Origin: an uncultured delta proteobacterium
Lineage (GTDB): Bacteria; Desulfobacterota; Desulfomonilia; Desulfomonilales; Desulfomonilaceae
Direction of reading: 5' to 3'
Length of the DNA: 64,000 bases
NCBI GenBank assembly: GCA_963789265.1
Contig: CAWBKB010000001.1
Location: 320,001 to 384,000 of the forward strand
Every line of letters begins with the position of its first letter. Within the stretch, counting starts at the first letter, position 1. Of this stretch, positions 3,204 through 30,493 are shown in pieces. The notes beneath the pieces were generated by a model, which did not search any database, was not told the DNA's origin, and saw only the letters and a list, made by a program, of their open reading frames with translations. Position numbers and translations under genes: made by a program.

Positions 3204-3941
3204 TTAAATCTCCATCGCTTCCCGGATCATCCGTCGAATATAGGCGTGAACCTTGGACCGATGGCTCGTGATTTTGGGCATACATGAGTCAAGGAGCGAG
3301 CACTTTTTGCATTTGTTCTCGTACTTGGCCTGAGGCGTTATACCCGATCGCATTATCTCGTGGAGCCGCAAGGCAGTGGTGACCGTTTCAGATCTGAGAG
3401 CCGCGTCGAACTCCACTTCCAGTCTCCTTGCAGTTTCTCCAAAGAAGATTGCCCCGCGCTCCACCCTGACTTCGAGCATCTCCTCCAAGCACATTGCCTG
3501 AGCGCAGACCTGCACCTCGAAGCTCCTATTCGAGCGCAGTCGGCCGCGCTTATACTCCACGGGATAAGGACGCCACTGTCCTGTGGCGCCAGGCAGACTG
3601 ACGCTCCTAGGTTGATCATCGACTGACGTCTCTGCCGCAGACACTCCCACTCGGTGGAATTCCACTACGTCGGCTTTACCTGACAGGCCGAGTTGAAGCG
3701 AGCGAATCAAAAGCCCGCGGGCTATGCGAAGATCCCCGCGTACCTCCGTTTTTGTAAGGCTGTGGACTCGCTCATGTCCCACCGTGCCTTCGGCAGTGAA
3801 CACATTGTCGCCCCACAAACCCTCAAGATGCACCAGTGCCGCACGACGTTCGCAGAAACTCAAATGCTGTAACCCGGATAGGGGCAGGATAGCTTCTTCG
3901 CTGAACCTGAAACTCGCTCCAACATTATACGATTGTACCAC
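3204..3941 (-). CDS. cas4: Cas4 exonuclease
   Basis: LQHLSFCER, GKADVVE, PVEYKRG, QVCAQAMCLEEM, CKKCSLLDSC Fe-S cysteines; start uncertain. Confidence 0.95.
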   Translation of the reverse strand: MVQSYNVGASFRFSEEAILPLSGLQHLSFCERRAALVHLEGLWGDNVFTAEGTVGHERVHSLTKTEVRGDLRIARGLLIRSLQLGLSGKADVVEFHRVGVSAAETSVDDQPRSVSLPGATGQWRPYPVEYKRGRLRSNRSFEVQVCAQAMCLEEMLEVRVERGAIFFGETARRLEVEFDAALRSETVTTALRLHEIMRSGITPQAKYENKCKKCSLLDSCMPKITSHRSKVHAYIRRMIREAMEI

Positions 3942-6127
3942 AGTCCTCGTGCCTCAACTTCTCCAGGTACTCCTGCCATGTAGCCGAGAAAATCGTCATA
4001 CAGTAGCTTCCAGCAGTACAGATCACGGAACCCCGCAACCTTCGTCAACGCGTATTCGACTTCCCTGTAACGCCAGATTTGAACGCTCAATTGCTGAAAA
4101 ATGCTGGTGTCCACTTGCTCATGCTCTCTAAGTTTTTCTAGCAAATCTTGGTCTACAACGGCTGTAACCGTATCGGAATCAATGACGGTGAAGTTCTCGG
4201 AGACAACGGGGAATTGCAGATTTCGTTCCGCCTTCGAAATTACATCAGAAATATCTCTCAGTTCCTGTTGCCGCACTTCCCGTCGCATAGCTTCAGTCGA
4301 TGCTTCGGCACACACTCTTCCTTCGTCAAACAGTTCCCCCAGAATCCTGGCGGGGACATCAAAGCCAGGATGCCTTTTGAGAAACCCGCCATGCTTCAAC
4401 TCGAAATCCCAGACGGTAGAATCGGGGTATTCTCCCTCTCGGCTAACGCGACCTCCCACTTGAATTAAGCTGTTGAGGCTGCATCGCTCCCGTAAGGCGT
4501 TGCGAAAAGACAAATTAACACCCGCTTCCACGCAAGAGGTGGCCACTAGCGTCCAATCATCATCTGCGAGAGCGTACAGACGTCTCTTGACTCGATCAAG
4601 AGTGATTTTTCGGTCCCGAGGGCAGAGCGATGTTGACAAATGTTCCACCTTGTTTCGACCACAGCGTCGGTCGATGTCTTTGGCCAGCACTGCGGCGGAT
4701 TGGACCGTATTGACAATCAAAAGCCGAGGGCCAGCTATCTCTGGCAACCATCGAAGCAGGCTCTCCTCACTCAATAAATCAGCCCTGGATTGGTATGTTA
4801 CGCGTCGCTTTTCATACTTTGAGAGTTTGGCTTTGATCTCTGCAGGAACGAGTTCGGGCAGGTCGACAGGCCTTTCCGAGAACTCCTGAAGTTGCCAGAA
4901 CCTATTCAGAGAACCAGAACCGAGCACGAAATGGCAACCCCAATCCGATTCCAACTCGCGTAGCCACTCCCATGCCTGCGGCCACAAATGTGTTGGAAGA
5001 GCCGCGTGGGCTTCATCGATGAAGACCGCTGAACCAGGCAGTTGATGGAGTTTGCGGAGACTGCCAGGACGATTTGCCGCTAAAGTTTCGAAAAACTGGA
5101 CAGCAGTGGTGACCACGATGGGGGCTTTCCATAGAAACGAGAGATGCCTCGATTCAAGATCTTCGAATTCTGCTTTGTGATGATGCGCTGCAACAACATC
5201 TGCTTGCAGCTCATTAGGTCTTACTAAGGCACGGCGGTATACCTTTACCGACTGATCAATAATGTTGGTGAAGGGCAATACCACGAAGATCCGACGAAGC
5301 CCTTTCGCTTGGGCAGCATGAAGAAGGTGAGCCATCACAGCGGTAGTCTTGCCAGTCCCTACGGCGCTGTCACAAGCATAAAACCCGGGACGAGGATCAG
5401 CATTGCTGCAGGCCTGATAAACTTCGCGGCGAAGAACGTTGCGCTCATGTTCCTCTTCTCCCAGGCCACTGACATACTCATTCAATAGCGTCAGGCGATA
5501 ATCAGGGTTTAGCGGTGGACCACAGCGCGAGACGATCTTGCCCTCGTGCCTCGCACTATCGTAATGGTCCGCATCGACCAGACATGACAGGGCCACACGA
5601 TAGGCGAGCGAAGGGAGGGGCGAGGGCCTGCTAGGGGACATGTAGTCTTCTTGATGAATCAGCATACCAACGGCTTTGTCGTGTGTCCCCAGATAATTAT
5701 GGAGGCGCTGGTCTGTAATAGATTTGATGTTCAAGTCTCTGAACACTTTGCCCGGCCCATTCAGACGCTGATCCTGAAAATCGGGCAATCCTTTATGATG
5801 GGAGTAAACGGCACAAGCGGCGAGCAGGTTGTTAATGCTTGGCTCAAAAAGGCGTGCAACGCCCGCGTCCACATGATTGATGGGCAGTCTTTTTGCCCGG
5901 AATGCCGACGCCAGTACCTTTTGATTCGCAGGCTCCAACTTCCCTAAATCATGAAATTGCGCCGCAAGACGGATAGCCTCTACAAACCGATCTGCATCGC
6001 CGTGCCAGTATTTCACTGCCTCAAGTGCATTTGTACAAGCGAGTTCTGTTACTCCACAGACATGGTCAGCGTAAGATTGAGGTGGAATGCCCCGCTGGGG
6101 GCGCGAACTGTGCGCAAGTGGTTCCAT
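3860..6127 (-). CDS. cas3: Cas3 HD nuclease-helicase
   Basis: HD motifs (YADHV, FHDLGK, SHHKGL, LVDADH), GTGKT, DEAH, QVGGRVSR; the long overlap with cas4 suggests a 1-nt indel near 3970 with the true stop near 3926. Confidence 0.95.
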   Translation of the reverse strand: MEPLAHSSRPQRGIPPQSYADHVCGVTELACTNALEAVKYWHGDADRFVEAIRLAAQFHDLGKLEPANQKVLASAFRAKRLPINHVDAGVARLFEPSINNLLAACAVYSHHKGLPDFQDQRLNGPGKVFRDLNIKSITDQRLHNYLGTHDKAVGMLIHQEDYMSPSRPSPLPSLAYRVALSCLVDADHYDSARHEGKIVSRCGPPLNPDYRLTLLNEYVSGLGEEEHERNVLRREVYQACSNADPRPGFYACDSAVGTGKTTAVMAHLLHAAQAKGLRRIFVVLPFTNIIDQSVKVYRRALVRPNELQADVVAAHHHKAEFEDLESRHLSFLWKAPIVVTTAVQFFETLAANRPGSLRKLHQLPGSAVFIDEAHAALPTHLWPQAWEWLRELESDWGCHFVLGSGSLNRFWQLQEFSERPVDLPELVPAEIKAKLSKYEKRRVTYQSRADLLSEESLLRWLPEIAGPRLLIVNTVQSAAVLAKDIDRRCGRNKVEHLSTSLCPRDRKITLDRVKRRLYALADDDWTLVATSCVEAGVNLSFRNALRERCSLNSLIQVGGRVSREGEYPDSTVWDFELKHGGFLKRHPGFDVPARILGELFDEGRVCAEASTEAMRREVRQQELRDISDVISKAERNLQFPVVSENFTVIDSDTVTAVVDQDLLEKLREHEQVDTSIFQQLSVQIWRYREVEYALTKVAGFRDLYCWKLLYDDFLGYMAGVPGEVEARGLWYNRIMLERVSGSAKKLSCPYPGYSI

Positions 6128-23339: not shown

Positions 23340-24273
23340 TCACGCAGCCCGATGTTCTTCCACGAACCTCCTAATGTTCCTGTGGAGGAAGTTCCGCATC
23401 AGGTCCGCGATCTTGTCGCCGTCCTCTTCAAGCGCGAAGTGTCCTGTGTCGAGAAGGTGAAACTCCAGGTTCTTCAGGTCTCTCTTGTAGGGTTCAGCGC
23501 CGGTTGCAGGGAAGATGGGATCGTTCTTTCCCCAGACAATGAGCGTCGGCGGCTGGTGCTCACGGAAATAGGCCTGCCACTTCGGGTACAGCGGTGGGTT
23601 GCTGCCGTAGCTATGAAAAAGAGCGAGCTGGATCTCAGCATTTCCCTGCCGGTCGAGCAGTGGCTGGTCAATGTTCCAGGTATCAGGACTGATTGTCTCC
23701 TTGTCCCGAACCCCCTCGGTGTATTGCCATACGGTGGCTTCCCGGGTGAGGAAGCGGCGCAGGGGCTTATCGCGCTCTGCCGTCTTTTCCTTCCAGTAAG
23801 CCTTGAGCGGTGTCCAGAAATCGTTGTCAATGCCCTCGTCGTAGGCGTTGCCGTTCTGCACCACCAAGGCCTGGACGAGGTCGGGGTGCTTGGTAGCCAG
23901 ACGGTAGCCGACAGGCGCGCCATAATCCTGAACGTACAGTGTGGTACTTCTTCAGTCCAACCGCATCGGTGAACTTGTCGATCACATCGGCCAGATTATC
24001 GAAGGTGTACTCGAACTCGTCCACGGTCGGCATCGAGCTATTGCCAAAGCCGGGGTAGTCCGGTGCAACCAAGTGGAACTCATCGGCCAGCGCCGGGATC
24101 AGGTTGCGGAACATCTGCGAACTGGTCGGGAAGCCGTGTAGCAGGAGCACGGCGGGGGCGTCCTTCGGTCCTGCCTCGCGGTAGAAAATATCCAGACCGT
24201 CTATCTTCGCAGTCCGGTAGGCCACCCTTGCTGAAGTTAACGCTCCTGCGGAAGTTTCATTCTCTGTTTTCAT
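23340..24273 (-). CDS. Alpha/beta hydrolase (epoxide hydrolase/dehalogenase-like), frameshifted near 23940
   Basis: [37 protein letters not shown] across two overlapping ORFs. Confidence 0.85.
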
Positions 24274-25153
24274 GATTGTTCTCCTTAGTGCTGTTTCTTA
24301 TTTGCTCCGATGCTTGATCGCCCTTGCCTCGCGGAACGTGAGCCGAGCAGTGGTCCGCTGTGTAGAAATCGTGGGGCGAGATCGAGACCTTGAAGATGCG
24401 CTCCGTGTTCCGCACTCTTCTCCGACGCTGCTGTTGGCCACTTCCTACGCGAAGGCCGGTCAATTCAAACATCATGCTGCGGGTCTATGAATATCAGAGC
24501 TTTCCCAATGCCTTTTGACGGAGACGGCTTCTTGCCAGGCTTTTGTTCAGAAAATTTTGATGGTTAAACCAGTACAAATTCCAGCATTCCGCGCACAAAT
24601 TCCGATTTTGCCAAGAACCCGGCCGGACTCCGTTAAACAAAAATTGTACATTGGCCCGGCGTCAGTCAACACGACAACTAAAGCAAAGAATTGGGGTCAG
24701 GTCTTGTTTCTTGCCTTTTGCCGTTGCCGTTGGTAGAGCCTGCTCCCTGTAGAGCAGTGGAGTCAAACGTGCGCAGTGATCTCATGGTGTGAAAAGCCGT
24801 ACTGCAGATGGGCTTTGTCGACTGCCCTGTCTCGTTTCGATGCGGACCGAACTCACGGCAAGAGTCCATCGAGAGACGGGAAATTCCGGGGACACCATGC
24901 TTTTTTCCCGTACCGCATATGGCGATAGAATTTTCTACTTGGCCGCTGATGACGTTTGATGTTGGTGTCAGGCATTGAAATGCCATTATAGGTCGCACAG
25001 AAATTTCAATATACTTCGTCATATTCAGGTAATAACAGTCTGTTCAAATAAGCCATCAGAGATTCGTCTGGATGTCAAATTTCAAGACCTGCCCCGTTTT
25101 TTCATCTAGCGGTGTGTTCTTTTATTGCCCTTTGTGCAGGGCCAGTATTCTAT

Positions 25154-25765
25154 TCACCCTGTGGTAAGGTAAAATATGACAAGTGTCACCGGTGGTGCAG
25201 TGAGCAGCAGGGCATAAAGTCCATATGTATTACAAATATTTCTAAGACCTATCCGTCGGGCCGAGCACCAATCAATCTGAAAATCCGCTCGATTCTTAGC
25301 CTTGAAAAGTTCAAAGTCGATGACATCGTGATTTTCCTGATATCGCCGCAAAATGCTAGCATATCGTTTTGATATCTTTTGGATTTGCTCAGGAGTATGG
25401 CCATTTTCCTCATTGTAGGGCGCTAGCTGGAGAAGATCGTTGTAAACATTGGTGATCTCGTTGGCGCAGTTATAGAGCCTTTCAGCCCTAAGTTGATAAT
25501 TCTTGGAAGCCTCAAGCAATGACAGCACCAATATGAACAATGACGCCAACAGCGTGGTAAATGCCAGAATATTTAGATATTTTACATTGAACACGAGAAA
25601 ATATGGTGCTAACCGCAAGCCAATTACATATATGCTCAGAATCGCGATCGATAAGATAGACCAGAGACTTTTTGTCTTGCAGCGCCTGTAGGTATTATAT
25701 CTAGCTCCTTTAGTGACCCACATTTTTTTGGCAAGCTCTTGTCCAAACGGAGTTTTTTCTGCCAC
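25154..25765 (-). CDS. SLATT-domain membrane effector
   Basis: MWVTKGARYN..RR, two TM helices, SLLE...YQLRAERLYNCANEI, Y..IL..YQENH..IDF, C-terminal TM. Confidence 0.85.
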   Translation of the reverse strand: MAEKTPFGQELAKKMWVTKGARYNTYRRCKTKSLWSILSIAILSIYVIGLRLAPYFLVFNVKYLNILAFTTLLASLFILVLSLLEASKNYQLRAERLYNCANEITNVYNDLLQLAPYNEENGHTPEQIQKISKRYASILRRYQENHDVIDFELFKAKNRADFQIDWCSARRIGLRNICNTYGLYALLLTAPPVTLVIFYLTTG

Positions 25766-25925
25766 GAGGCGCCTCCGGGTGTTCGCTTTGTCGAGCGTAG
25801 GGGCCGCCTCTGAAATAAAAAAACTCTCCGAAGTGCTATGCCTCGGAGATCCTGGGCCTCACAGGGCTCGGATTACAAATACCCCCGCCGTGCTGACAGG
25901 AGCCTCCCTTGCGGGGAGGCAACCC
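25766..25925 (-). ncRNA. Candidate structured ncRNA of the RT-SLATT system
   Basis: Four predicted stem-loops in 160 nt with a single-stranded AGUUUUUUUAUUUCA segment between two of them. Confidence 0.5.
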
Positions 25926-26447
25926 CTACGAAATCAATCCTACATCAAGATCAAGATCTGACAAGTGTTTTTTCTTCACGCCGATAAATAAGATTTCGAT
26001 TTGCTCGCGTGAATAGCGTTTTTCAGGATTCAACAATCCCCTATCAGCTAAGTATTTGATTTTGGCAGGGACTGTCTCATATAATTCATAATTTTGTATG
26101 TAGCCACCAAAGGTGTCATACTTTATCTTGTAAAATGCAGTTGACAATTTCTTTAGCTGCCCAGGCGTGCGGTAGTCGAAATCAGATAGCCTGCGAAAAA
26201 AACCTCTAATGATTCCGTCCAATTTATGGAGTAACTGCATGTCATTGATCTCTGCGAAGTAAAATAACCAACCATATCGTTTCTGCTCACTAATCGCTCC
26301 AGTTATTTTTTCGTTGAGATCTTCTATGAAGACCCGTTCTTGGGTTTCCTTGGTCATCCATCCGCATTTCTTCAATTGGTCCCCCGAATTATGAAGGTAC
26401 CAGGTGAACCTGGCAGCTATCGAAGTGAGGAATCTCTCTATATTTTG

Positions 26448-28057
26448 GGGTGCCGCGATTTCTTGTCATGAGTGGCTCAAGTAAAAACGAGTAGATAGCA
26501 CGGAGAAAGGAGTGGTTTCCGGTCCTCTTATGGGGTACATGACGTTTGGCGAACGATGTATCCGCTGGGGAGGACCGGATATGGAACAAGGAATACCGAA
26601 CATAATCTCGCTGGTCAATGAGATTCTCGCCTTTGTGCGAGAGTCAGCGCAAGGAATGGAAATCGGGGAAGTAGAAAGGCAGCTTCTTCCCATGGTGATG
26701 GCGGTCGGGAAAGCGGCTCTTGAAGAATTTGTGTCTGAAAAGGGGACCGGATATGCCGGCAAGGAGATCATCGAACCCCAGGGCCATCGATTGCCATATG
26801 TTCGTGACAGGGGATGTGCATATCGGTCCATCTTTGGAACGATATCCATCCGGAGAGCCTACTATCACGCAACCGGCTCACCGGGAGTCTTTCCTTTGGA
26901 TGGAGAGATCAACTTGCCTGAGAGAGGCTATTCATACCTGGTTCAGGAGTTCTCTTCCCGGCTTGCGGTTTCGATGAGCTACGAGGATGCGGAGGAGATT
27001 TTTCGTTCCTTCTTTCCCGTAAGGATGCCAATTCGTTCACTGGAGAGCATTGTGGGAGACGTCTGCGACGAGGTGGATCGATACTACGCAGAGAAGGCCC
27101 CGCCGGATCTTTGTCCGGATGCTGTGGTAACGGTCGCTACCGTAGACAAGAAGGGGGTGGTTATTCGTAAGCCCCAGGAAGGCGGGGCCGGTCCCGAGAG
27201 GGTCTCCGTTGATCCCGACAAGCCCGGAAAGAAGAAGATGGCAACCGTGATCTCCACCTACGTCACTCCACGTTACGTCCGCACGGAGGACGACATTGTC
27301 CGTGAGGTATCGGACGAGGGTAGTTTCGATTCCAGGCCCAAACCCCAGGACAAGCTTACGTGGGGCAGCCTCACCGATGGTTCGGAAAAGACGGTGGCCC
27401 GCCTGAAGAAGGCTGTCGAACAGCGATTGCCGAAAGGTAACGAGCTGGTCTGTATCCTGGACGGAGAGCGTTCTCTCTGGGCACTGGTATGCGCATATTT
27501 TCCTGCAGCCTTTTTCGTGCTGGACATCTTTCACGTCCTGGAACACTTGGGGAAAGCCGCTCTTTGCTTTTATGACGAGGGCAGCCCGCAAGCCAGAGAA
27601 TTCGTGACGGAGAGATTGAGAATGCTCCTGGGCGGCAGGGCCGGCAGGCTTATCGGCGGGCTCAAGCAGATGCTAACCAAGCAGGAACTCTCCGGCGCCA
27701 AGAAACATTGCATCGAACAAGTCATCGGGTATCTCCAACGAAACCGCAAGCACATGCGGTACGAAATCTGCTTGGCAAAAGGCTATCCCATCGGCAGCGG
27801 GGTCATTGAAGGAGCATGTCGCAACCTCATCAACGACAGATTGGAACTCACGGGGATGAGTTGGACGATCCATGGAGCGGAAAGCATGATCCACCTGAGG
27901 GCCGTTCACATCAACAACGACTGGGATCTCTTTTGGAATTATAGACGAAGATCGGAGAGGCGACGCCTCTACGGCATCGAAGATACAAACTCTCCCGAGA
28001 TCCGGGATCAAGAACTACCGCGTGCCGCATAACTCCTGACAGAAAGTAGCGGCACCC
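26448..28057 (+). mobile_element. ISKra4-family-like insertion sequence, 1610 bp
   Basis: Imperfect TIRs GGGTGCCGCGATTTCTTGTCA / GGGTGCCGCTACTTTCTGTCA; 9-bp TSD TATATTTTG at 26439-26447 and 28058-28066. Confidence 0.92.
26581..28032 (+). CDS. DDE transposase (ISKra4-like)
   Basis: TVDKKGV, ILDGE..LW, LDIFHVLEHL, GYPIGSGVIEGACR. Confidence 0.9.
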   Translation: MEQGIPNIISLVNEILAFVRESAQGMEIGEVERQLLPMVMAVGKAALEEFVSEKGTGYAGKEIIEPQGHRLPYVRDRGCAYRSIFGTISIRRAYYHATGSPGVFPLDGEINLPERGYSYLVQEFSSRLAVSMSYEDAEEIFRSFFPVRMPIRSLESIVGDVCDEVDRYYAEKAPPDLCPDAVVTVATVDKKGVVIRKPQEGGAGPERVSVDPDKPGKKKMATVISTYVTPRYVRTEDDIVREVSDEGSFDSRPKPQDKLTWGSLTDGSEKTVARLKKAVEQRLPKGNELVCILDGERSLWALVCAYFPAAFFVLDIFHVLEHLGKAALCFYDEGSPQAREFVTERLRMLLGGRAGRLIGGLKQMLTKQELSGAKKHCIEQVIGYLQRNRKHMRYEICLAKGYPIGSGVIEGACRNLINDRLELTGMSWTIHGAESMIHLRAVHINNDWDLFWNYRRRSERRRLYGIEDTNSPEIRDQELPRAA

Positions 28058-29154
28058 TATATTTTGTTCTCTTATGGTTACTTTGGGTAACTCTAAGTGA
28101 TAGCCCAAATAATCGTACGGGCAGTTGGAAATATTGCACTCCGTTTTTCTTTTACTGAGGTTCAAGTCCAATTCGGTCAGGTCACGGGTTATTTCTGTTT
28201 CAAGTTCGTCTGCATTTTCTTCCTGGACAAAGAACAAAATATCGTCCACGTACCTAAAATATTTGAGCCCGTACCGCTGAAATTTCTGGTCCAATTGATG
28301 GAGATAGATATTTGCTAGAATGTTTGATATCGCAAGACCCTGAGGTATTCCTTTGTCGGTCTTATACTGTCCGCGGTCAGATCTGCTGTTGAGTGGAACT
28401 GTTGGTGTGCTGACGGCTAGTTTCAGCAACGTAAGTATTTTCGGCGATTTAACCTTGGCACGAATAATCGACATAAGGACCAAGCGATTTATGCTATCAT
28501 AAAATGACTTGATGTCACCTTTGAAGTAACATAGAGTTTGCTGTCCATTCGATTTATCGAACTCTTTTATTTCTCTTATGTAATCATTTGGCAACCTTCT
28601 GTTCACAGAGAGCGGAAACACTTGATGCATGAATTCCTTCAATAAATACAAGACTATGCGATCGCGCATGGTAGCGACTGAAATCACTCTAGGAAGTTTG
28701 CCCCTGCCTTTGCTCAGTAACTTCTCAACGTATGGCGTAAATCTATATGTTCCTTTATTACATTTCCGATAAATAACTTGGAAGTGTTCTTTTTTATCTC
28801 GATTGAAGGTTTTAATACCAATTCGATCCAAACCTCTGGTCGGTTTTTTCGAGACAAAATTATCGTAAGCTGATTCAATGCTCTTTATAGAAAATAATCT
28901 CTTGAAACGTTCTGCAGGATAGGGCATCGCTGGCATATCACCGTTTCACAAAACTACCGCATCTTTTCTCTATCACAGCAACTGTTTCATTACAATTGAA
29001 ATCTGATACGTGGCACTACGGGAGGAAGTTTGGGGACGCTCTTAAAAAATTAACAAACTTTCTGCCGTAATCTGTAGTGATTCCCATGGGCAATCTTCTT
29101 TATTCTACGCGCGGCGTAGCCAACACTTGGAACTGTCATTCCAGGTGGGGGGCA

Positions 29155-29344
29155 GGGGTCAAGTCTACTCTTGGCTCATCTGCGCGCTGGCATCCAGTGC
29201 CGTAGGGGCGCCGAAGGGGTCAAGTGTGCTCTTGACTCACGTTGCGCGTGTTACTCGATGTCATGGTGCGCCTAAATGAGCCAAGAGCAGACCCGACCCT
29301 CTTTGGTTACAGCCGAACCATGAGTCAAGAGCAGACCTGACCCC
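29155..29344. repeat. Four REP-like units, two direct then two inverted
   Basis: GGGGTCAAGT..CTCTTG.CTCA at 29155 and 29216; ATGAG.CAAGAGCAGACC.GACCC at 29276 and 29320. Confidence 0.8.
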
Positions 29345-29545
29345 TTTGCCTCTTTCAGGCGCTGACGGAGGCTGTGCGCGACTCGGCCGTACCCTCAGGA
29401 AACACCCTCGTTCCTTGCTACGGAGAAGTTTTTCCTTGACGGAGGGCCTTTCAATGGGTGACCTCTTTCGAAGGTTCCAATTTCTTGAGGTATTTCTAAA
29501 GAAAGCGATTCGTTTCGGACAGCGAACCACTATAGGAGGCCTGTA

Positions 29546-30493
29546 ATGTCCTACAGTCAAACAGTATACGATCTTCTCGAAAATTTTGTTCCAATAGGAA
29601 CATTCTCGTATGCAGCGTTGGTGAGCCGAGAACCCCATTATGAGCATTTTGCTGAAAACGTCCGGGCAGCCGCCATTGCCTCAACATTGGGGCTTAAGAG
29701 CTTAGATTACGCAAAGCGCCGGTACGATTGTAAGGACCAGGGGGTAGAGACGGAAGTACTCCCAATTAACGCATATATCGACGCGTATCACTTTACGAAT
29801 TCATATGTGAGGAATTGCATTGCCTCTCTAAAGACTGATGAAAAGCCGGAGCCTTCTGCTGGAGAGTTTTGTGCGGCAGTTGTTCTCACAAGACTACCCT
29901 CCAGTTTTTTTTGCGCTCATTTAATGTACGAATTGGGGCACCGGTATGAGGGGCATGCAATATCGAGGCTTATTCTCGAACAACTTGCTTGGGCCTATGC
30001 GGCCTTCAAAGCTCAAGATGTAGAGATTGTAAAAAAAATCCGTACAACGAAAACATTGTCAACACTCACGTCATTTGCCCCCCAAGCGGGTGAGTTATAT
30101 GGTTTCTTAAGTAAGAAGACCCATATTGATTATTCGATTCATCCGGAGTTCTTAAGAATCTATGATGGTACAAATGCTATTATTCGAAGCCACGGCGACT
30201 ACATTTTGCCTGAATACGGTTCGGTAATCCTTCTGCTGGGCGATCTATTTGGTTTAGTATGGGAGGCATCTCAGTTTCAATATATAGTTTCACCGCAGGC
30301 GGTTGAATCGAGGCGAGGCACTTGTTTTCCCAAACCAGATCGAGCGTACCTTTTAAGCATGCAGGAATACCTGAGTAATATCGACCAAGCCGTACAGGAG
30401 GCTTATCATGCTCTAAATGAAGAATCGGGCGAAATTTCTGCGGCTCTGAGAATCTTTAGAGAATGGTCTACTCAGAGAGTAACTAACGGCTGA
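29546..30493 (+). CDS. Hypothetical protein, possibly DUF5677/HEPN-like
   Basis: 315-aa ORF with GGAGG RBS; SRLILEQ and LYGFLSKKTH motifs. Confidence 0.6.
   Translation: MSYSQTVYDLLENFVPIGTFSYAALVSREPHYEHFAENVRAAAIASTLGLKSLDYAKRRYDCKDQGVETEVLPINAYIDAYHFTNSYVRNCIASLKTDEKPEPSAGEFCAAVVLTRLPSSFFCAHLMYELGHRYEGHAISRLILEQLAWAYAAFKAQDVEIVKKIRTTKTLSTLTSFAPQAGELYGFLSKKTHIDYSIHPEFLRIYDGTNAIIRSHGDYILPEYGSVILLLGDLFGLVWEASQFQYIVSPQAVESRRGTCFPKPDRAYLLSMQEYLSNIDQAVQEAYHALNEESGEISAALRIFREWSTQRVTNG

Follow-up and report, generated by a model that had tools for sequence, protein, structure and literature searches.

When a mobile element has cut the gene for a bacterial reverse transcriptase (RT) in two, can the defence module to which the enzyme belonged still be recognised, and what has become of its parts? 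This question is raised by a locus in the genome of an uncultured delta proteobacterium (GenBank assembly GCA_963789265.1), which lies on contig CAWBKB010000001.1 within a stretch of 64,000 nucleotides (positions 320,001 to 384,000) that was analysed as a whole and is called the window here. On its minus strand two fragments of an RT gene flank an insertion sequence (IS) and are followed by a gene for a SLATT protein, with 160 nt between the RT stop codon (25926–25928) and the SLATT start (25765). [quoted passage not shown] According to the present analysis the locus is, with a probability of about 0.9, a DRT10 (UG17) antiphage module of three parts, arranged RT-ncRNA-SLATT (UG17-B architecture), the RT gene of which was broken by an IS of the ISKra4 family.

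Recent studies of this family provide the frame for comparison. DRT10 was reported to require all three parts, RT, ncRNA and SLATT (Tang et al., 2025, PMC12632851). The ncRNA forms a basal stem from both of its ends and carries further stem-loops and two loops, the second of which follows a stable stem-loop and holds the template, a short A-B and then A′, which is copied repeatedly into tandem repeats (Tang et al., 2025; Ramirez et al., 2026, 10.64898/2026.06.29.735271). RT and ncRNA were found in a 2:1 complex; the RNA has two loops, A and B, and the primer is a Ser or Tyr at the C terminus of the RT (Ramirez et al., 2026). Levels of the repeat DNA are limited by SbcB, an exonuclease of the host, and increase on infection, SLATT being the presumed effector (Sanchez-Nieto et al., 2026, 10.64898/2026.04.29.721553). 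Three subtypes of UG17 were distinguished, among them an RT-SLATT form whose two genes stand about 200 bp apart; one of the two gene architectures, named UG17-B and exemplified by Methylotenera mobilis JLW8, comprises RT, a gap of about 200 bp and SLATT, with separate promoters and the ncRNA upstream of SLATT (Sanchez-Nieto et al., 2026). DRT9 (UG28) combines a Class 2 UG RT with an ncRNA, relies on protein priming and uses a U-tract as template (Tang et al., 2025, Nature, as referred to in PMC12632851).

Results

One reverse transcriptase in two fragments

Deletion by script of the IS together with one copy of its target-site duplication TATATTTTG yielded a single open RT frame of 463 aa, as the sequence-only reading had stated, and this read-through RT aligned without a gap over the junction with 12 intact homologues of 461–472 aa. 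The 5′ part, whose last three codons are the target-site duplication, continues in frame into the IS as far as 27911 and thus appears in the list of open reading frames (ORFs) as a 341-aa ORF (27911–28936, minus strand), while the 3′ part has left an in-frame remnant of 149 aa with a TTG start (25926–26375, minus strand). The insertion site comprises RT codons 291–293 between palm and thumb, so that the frame is broken after codon 293, i.e. 12 residues past the end of the Pfam RVT_1 match, which is a full domain (2.6e-22, residues 82–281 of the 5′ fragment). Both sequence hallmarks that had been claimed were recovered, namely YVDD, at residue 229 of the read-through RT in a column invariant in 37 homologues, and the stretch KITGAISE..RYGWLFYF..IND. 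The read-through RT ends in Ser463, and the C-terminal residue is Ser in 11 of the 12 aligned homologues and Tyr in the remaining one; judged from the position of Ser or Tyr in DRT10, Ser463 is a candidate priming residue.

The earlier reading had supposed that annotation based on ORFs would overlook the system; even as split fragments, both parts were strong matches in a scan of the PADLOC profiles. For the N-terminal part the best family was RT_UG17 (4.1e-94, 313.8 bits, profile positions 4–282 of 429), and for the C-terminal part RT_UG17 was the only PADLOC match (6.5e-31, 105.6 bits, positions 300–428 of 429). The runner-up DRT model, Drt3a, scored 103 bits, and RT_UG28 was outside the best 25 families for the N-terminal fragment, so that of the two kinships suggested earlier, DRT10 or DRT9, only that with DRT10 was borne out. 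None of the NCBIfam models was passed by the RT: its retron models gave at most 45.4 bits against cut-offs of at least 235, and the group II RT/maturase model TIGR04416 reached 135.4 bits, below its cut-off of 300. Pfam detected RVT_1 only and no GIIM maturase domain. The motifs NAxxH and VTG are characteristic of retron RTs, and neither was found in the read-through RT, just as the earlier reading, which had also seen no intron endonuclease domain, had it. A sequence search of the PDB with an RT profile retrieved no DRT10 chain and instead RT cores of group II-like, other DRT and retron RTs, the best chain being a group II intron RT with 112.3 bits. By its profile scores the RT most probably belongs to UG17 (DRT10).

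The interrupting insertion sequence

Terminal inverted repeats of 26 nt (26448–26473 and 28032–28057, 81% complementary in the repeat search) delimit the IS, and TATATTTTG abuts it on both outer sides. Its transposase passes the NCBIfam equivalog model NF033572 for the ISKra4 family (249.3 bits, cut-off 205). The organism's own genome (6.06 Mb in 9 contigs, 95.6% complete) holds seven full-length copies with about 100% identity, which occupy varied targets, AT-rich and other, and each of the six copies with both ends present has a 9-bp duplication of its own around it. It is a genuine insertion sequence and an active one, and since it is present in several near-identical copies, its insertion into the RT gene is taken to be recent. 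Like ISKra4-family elements in general, it encodes a transposase of the family, ends in terminal inverted repeats, lies within a 9-bp target duplication and is present in several identical copies; no unusual feature of the IS was seen.

The SLATT gene and its linkage to the RT

That the 203-aa neighbour is a SLATT protein, as had been supposed, was corroborated by searches with hidden Markov models: it corresponds to Pfam SLATT_5 (1.7e-46, positions 6–190 of 192), scores 140.1 bits with the NCBIfam SLATT_5 model (cut-off 60) and matches the PADLOC model RTasSLATT for RT-associated SLATT (2e-37). Two strong hydrophobic segments are evident from hydropathy at about residues 32–61 and 61–88.

A database search with the 5′ fragment of the RT returned 641 proteins at E <= 1e-20, of which the best full-length homologues (461–469 aa) were 51–57% identical, the nearest RT 57%. 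Related loci were collected in a scan of one genome per species, which yielded 79 loci, and their SLATT genes were identified with script-built models. The SLATT gene adjoins the RT in 64 of these: RT, gap and SLATT follow each other on one strand in 54 loci, and SLATT stands directly before the RT in ten. Of the 54 gaps, 53 measure 132–350 nt; the remaining one, in a locus for which the RT call is partial, has 508 nt. No SLATT gene was found in the other 15, at least five of which end less than 400 nt after the RT. The closest relatives with the order RT-SLATT, L030 and L034, have gaps of 159 and 165 nt as compared to 160 nt in the window. Homologues hence keep the linkage, in 54 of the 79 loci with the same gene order. 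Of the three outcomes that would have spoken against the earlier reading, namely an RT of another class, a neighbour without a SLATT match and loss of the linkage in homologues, none was obtained.

An ncRNA that begins in the RT stop codon

The ends of the ncRNA were set from the homologous gaps, in which a long-range stem opens at the RT stop codon or close to it and ends ahead of SLATT, its sequence varying widely from locus to locus. The 135-nt element thus delimited folds with -67.5 kcal/mol (z -5.23, with none of 200 shuffles as good), whereas the 160-nt gap, folded in full, gave no signal over shuffles (z -1.19); the earlier description of a structured gap of 160 nt was therefore right in its length and holds for the element from 25930 to 25796, but not for the gap as a whole. 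The minimum free energy (MFE) fold of the element is identical with the five-helix RNAalifold consensus of the window, L030 and L034, and its order from 5′ to 3′ is P1, P2, P3, loop A, P4, P5, loop B and the 3′ strand of P1 (Table 1). The 5′ end overlaps the stop codon of the RT.

Plain MAFFT alignments of 14–15 gaps were too poor for structure and were replaced by a three-sequence seed and model-based alignment, with covariance model R1 built from the window, L030 and L034 and model R2 from the 15 best R1 matches. Each model matches one place only in the 64-kb window, with 129.7 (R1) and 109.9 bits (R2). R1 also matches the stretch immediately 3′ of the RT in further loci, and R2 detects, at E <= 0.01, the element in 36 of the 79 loci in addition to the window, on the RT strand throughout except for one reverse-strand echo; in 35 loci the start of the match falls within an interval that reaches from 4 nt ahead of the RT frame's end to about 60 nt beyond it. 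Within the alignment of 15 sequences 92.6% of the cells are standard pairs, as compared to 36–47% with the partner slid by 1–3 columns, and in 37 of 41 pairs both sides have changed, values reached by none of 500 shuffles, although pairing and covariation counts lean towards the model to which this alignment was fitted. An uninterrupted basal stem of at least 9 bp is present in 42 of 54 gaps and in 176 of 540 mononucleotide shuffles, a high background that leaves only weak support. Apart from a chance-level match to psbNH (18.8 bits, gathering score 45), an Rfam scan of 24900–29600 at E <= 1 gave no hit. The -10 box of a promoter-like site ends 7 nt before the ncRNA, which is a consensus match only; the region contains 11 such sites with 5.9 expected from shuffles.

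Table 1: Coordinates of the features of the interrupted module in the window.
Feature	Position	Strand	Evidence
SLATT_5 effector gene, 203 aa, GTG start, intact	25154..25765	-	Pfam, PADLOC, NCBIfam
DRT10-type ncRNA (predicted), 135 nt	25796..25930	-	MFE fold equal to consensus, covariance models, covariation
ncRNA basal stem P1	25930-25916 paired with 25810-25796	-	15 pairs, two of them G-U
ncRNA hairpin P2	25915-25906	-	predicted fold
ncRNA hairpin P3	25903-25881	-	predicted fold
ncRNA loop A, single-stranded, conserved, AUUUGUA	25880-25874	-	predicted fold
ncRNA hairpin P4	25873-25849	-	predicted fold
ncRNA hairpin P5	25848-25826	-	predicted fold
ncRNA loop B, single-stranded, AGUUUUUUUAUUUCA, predicted template loop	25825-25811	-	predicted fold
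RT gene 3′ part, thumb and C-terminal domain, Ser463, stop TAG 25926-25928	25926..26447	-	PADLOC RT_UG17; collinear homologues
Promoter-like site, TTGTCA, 16 nt, TAGGAT	25937..25964	-	sigma-70-like pattern scan, 9/12 matches
Left 9-bp target-site duplication TATATTTTG	26439..26447	no strand	read from sequence
Insertion sequence, 1610 bp, ISKra4 family	26448..28057	+	inverted repeats, genome copies, target duplications
IS transposase gene, 506 aa	26512..28032	+	Pfam UPF0236 8.4e-07; NCBIfam NF033572
Right 9-bp target-site duplication TATATTTTG	28058..28066	no strand	read from sequence
RT gene 5′ part, codons 1-293, fingers and palm with YVDD	28058..28936	-	Pfam RVT_1; PADLOC RT_UG17

Loop B, which follows directly after P5, reads AGU7AU3CA in the window and allows UUU-A-UUU as well as other registers. 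In six close relatives the loop spells UUUA-AC-UUUA or UUUA-C-UUUA without such ambiguity. From the sequence, the product of an intact copy would be A-rich, its repeat unit not being readable.

In a freshwater metagenome run (X3), short contigs with about 97–99% identity cover the region from the SLATT start through the ncRNA to the RT 3′ end (25692–26113), with one change in the 3′ strand of the basal stem (25805); these contigs look like a close variant of the module elsewhere.

Phylogeny and gene order of the relatives

A quick maximum-likelihood tree of 73 rows, with 7 partial RTs left out and SH-aLRT as the only support, placed the window RT in a five-row clade with L030, L031, L032 and L033 (100% support). 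The order RT-ncRNA-SLATT occurs in the window, L030 and L034, and the order SLATT-RT-ncRNA in five loci (L031:2392–4517, L032:2393–4518, L033:143–2265, L079:1613–5602 and L086:2297–4504). No evident common sequence was found in the 200 nt upstream of SLATT in L031, L032, L033 and L079, and no R2 match in the SLATT-RT loci L096, L102, L103, L106 and L107. SLATT-RT-ncRNA is not among the UG17 architectures described in the accessible parts of Sanchez-Nieto et al. (2026).

Two further observations were made in the related loci. The UG17 RT of L079 (2210–5461), a sister, is also interrupted, by a same-strand ORF of 478 aa (3244–4680) with RVT_1 and GIIM domains, which points to a group II intron that might still splice out. 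Five UG17-like RTs (L052, L059, L070, L074 and L083), with no SLATT found within the locus, form a clade of their own; L083 has an R2 match right after the RT and L074 a weak R1 match there, and this clade may use another effector.

Genomic setting

The GC content is 0.38–0.46 across the module and 0.52–0.57 in its flanks, and among the genomes of 60 relatives no UG17-level match was found, the best reaching 170.8 bits compared to 312.5 in the window; these 170.8-bit matches fall on genes of about 457 aa that occur in multiple copies and resemble intron RTs. Because of its low GC and the lack of a UG17-level match in the 60 relatives, the module looks like a small, horizontally acquired islet. 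The genes around it belong to metabolism and signalling and not to defence.

Low-GC DNA beside the module encodes a 315-aa ORF (29546–30493, plus strand) for which searches of Pfam, PADLOC, NCBIfam and PHROGs gave no match. None of the 79 UG17 loci contains a relative of it either, and for these reasons it was not counted in the module. Just upstream of the RT gene (29143–29346) nested direct and inverted repeats are located, with units of about 23–41 nt that are 78–92% alike, in the style of REP or miniature elements. On the other side an alpha/beta-hydrolase gene (23340–24273, minus strand) is seemingly split into two overlapping ORFs, 23827–24273 covering positions 1–74 of Abhydrolase_1 and 23340–23867 positions 106–244, which suggests a frameshift or sequencing error. 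Elsewhere in the same genome further RT genes of 446–460 aa were detected (G000:C1:1767868–1768818, G000:C3:299062–300012 and G000:C8:72392–73405), which score 123–160 bits on the UG17 profile, two of them with identical score and span (160 bits, positions 6–315), and are probably group II intron RTs.

Discussion

An interrupted module and its present state

By analogy with the systems that have been studied, two RT molecules of an intact copy would bind one 135-nt ncRNA, DNA synthesis would be primed on the C-terminal serine of one of them, and the short template of loop B would be copied over and over into tandem-repeat DNA, which would accumulate on phage infection, whereupon the SLATT membrane protein would stop the cell. 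As the DNA now stands, the 5′ fragment with fingers and palm runs into the IS, and thumb, C-terminal domain and priming serine are left to a separate fragment, so that the split RT could presumably not make repeat DNA. Of the three parts the RT alone is interrupted, ncRNA and SLATT gene being intact. A deletion of five C-terminal RT residues was reported to abolish the defence of Eco3 (Ramirez et al., 2026). Because thumb, C-terminal domain and serine are split off, and with regard to this deletion, we infer that the module is off, and in the present DNA it is most likely inactive.

Alternative explanations

An RT of some other class (DRT9/UG28, retron or group II intron) that neighbours SLATT by coincidence is hardly conceivable. 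The generic core of the RT does match group II intron RTs in NCBIfam and the PDB, and the U7 tract in loop B recalls the poly-U template of DRT9, but the UG17 profile scored 313.8 and 105.6 bits on the two fragments, with the C-terminal one matching nothing else and RT_UG28 outside the best 25, TIGR04416 and, by far, the retron models stayed under their cut-offs, GIIM domain and retron motifs are missing, and SLATT is linked to the RT in 64 of 79 loci. Only slightly less improbable is a mere intergenic spacer of 160 nt with a terminator of the RT gene and no functional RNA. Such a spacer would be in keeping with the poor folding of the entire gap, with the resemblance of P5 and U7 to a terminator and with the absence of an Rfam match above threshold; with the right ends, however, the fold is far better than that of shuffles, the five helices have been preserved, with 37 of 41 pairs showing compensatory changes, 36 of 79 loci carry the element 3′ of the RT, among them five with SLATT on the other side, and relatives retain P5 without a U run behind it.

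As regards the state of the module, it is very unlikely that it still works, either with the IS absent from part of the population (an on/off polymorphism) or with two RT fragments that act together. For such activity speak the intact ncRNA and SLATT gene as well as the near-identical IS copies, by which the element was recently active; against it, a contig joining across the empty site was not found in four sequencing runs, the cover of which is fragmentary, the break parts the palm from thumb, C-terminal domain and priming serine, and the loss of as few as five C-terminal residues already abolishes defence (Ramirez et al., 2026). Less improbable, yet still doubtful, is that the insertion was kept by selection as it silences a self-toxic module, constitutive synthesis of repeat DNA not being tolerated without a suitable single-stranded DNA exonuclease. 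SbcB was reported to suppress the toxicity of DRT10 (Sanchez-Nieto et al., 2026), and an insertion in a UG17 RT to make SbcB dispensable to E. coli (Mestre et al., 2022, PMC9226505). The RT alone is disrupted, with SLATT gene and ncRNA left intact, and the C-terminal domain of ExoI (SbcB), PF08411, was not found in the organism's own genome, which is 95.6% complete and not closed, in a search aimed at ExoI that was positive in the E. coli control only. On the other hand, an IS with seven copies at varied targets would need no selection, as chance insertion into a low-GC islet suffices.

Several points weigh against the interpretation as an interrupted UG17-B module. Rfam has no family for the ncRNA, so that the RNA evidence rests on models built in the present analysis, and P5 followed by U7 also fits a simple pattern of an intrinsic terminator. 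The A-B-A′ rule for the template is met only ambiguously by U7-A-U3, for which many registers are possible. The subtype was assigned by gene order only, with a tree that lacks named references for UG17-A, UG17-B and UG17-C, and the five-row clade of the window mixes orders, with RT-SLATT in L030 and SLATT-RT in L031, L032 and L033. Finally, DNA contigs from the sequencing runs do not bridge the IS junctions: parts of the stretch were present in three DNA runs, with a best share of 0.35, one run gave nothing, and across the four runs analysed, with short contigs and fragmentary cover, no contig spanning an IS junction was found. Among the sequencing runs listed for the locus none is of RNA.

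Comparison with described systems

With UG17-B the locus has in common that RT and SLATT_5 gene share one strand with the RT upstream, that a structured ncRNA occupies the gap before SLATT, which is roughly 200 bp in size, that the RT matches the UG17 profile and that a promoter-like site stands before the second unit. It differs in the split of the RT by the IS, in the gap of 160 nt at the short end of the range, in the nearest RT being only 57% identical and, according to the quick tree, in a clade that also includes loci with SLATT on the other side, membership being judged by gene order only. The order RT-ncRNA-SLATT put forward in the earlier reading was thus supported by the 135-nt element in the gap, but the novelty it implied was not, as this is the published UG17-B arrangement (Sanchez-Nieto et al., 2026).

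The E. coli systems Eco1 and Eco3 of DRT10 likewise combine RT, ncRNA and SLATT, their ncRNAs having about 137–143 nt compared to 135 nt in the window, with a basal stem formed by the RNA ends, four further hairpins and two single-stranded loops, the second after a stable hairpin; YVDD is also shared, and a terminal Ser in the window stands where Eco1 and Eco3 have their priming Ser or Tyr. In contrast to their order ncRNA-SLATT-RT with overlapping genes, the ncRNA of the window follows the RT and starts in its stop codon, and its loop B is U-rich with ambiguous A-B-A′ registers. The likeness to DRT9/UG28 includes the U-tract, which is the template in DRT9 and appears as U7 in loop B, whereas the RT profile is UG17, the partner is SLATT_5 and the templates of close relatives are of mixed sequence in A-B-A′ form and not poly-U.

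A rather speculative extension, which we regard as unlikely and somewhat less plausible than selection for the insertion, is that the clade of the window represents a sub-lineage of DRT10 in its own right. Its ncRNA would be bound to the RT gene's 3′ end, with a stem starting in the stop codon, SLATT could stand on either side, and in the copy of the window the U7-A-U3 loop would give an A-rich product, either a short repeat of the (TAAA)n type or nearly homopolymeric dA. If this were true, the product of U7-A-U3 would link the product types of DRT10 and DRT9.

Conclusions

The locus is a new (57% identical) but IS-broken member of DRT10/UG17 with the B-type order, in a family that has already been described, and published supplementary lists of DRT10 may already include loci like it. 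Only three features point beyond the ordinary, namely the ncRNA that starts in the RT stop codon, the five loci with the order SLATT-RT-ncRNA and the U-rich template loop. For biology at large the finding is of little importance, as mechanism and structure of DRT10 have been described since 2025 and the copy in the window is broken. It is nevertheless a clean natural example of an IS silencing a DRT10 RT while ncRNA and SLATT effector are left intact, and this disruption of the RT only fits reports that such modules can be costly to their hosts. Scans for defence systems should read through IS insertions. The related loci, in turn, supply a ready covariance model for the RT-proximal ncRNA and point to an undescribed permutation of the module, SLATT-RT-ncRNA.

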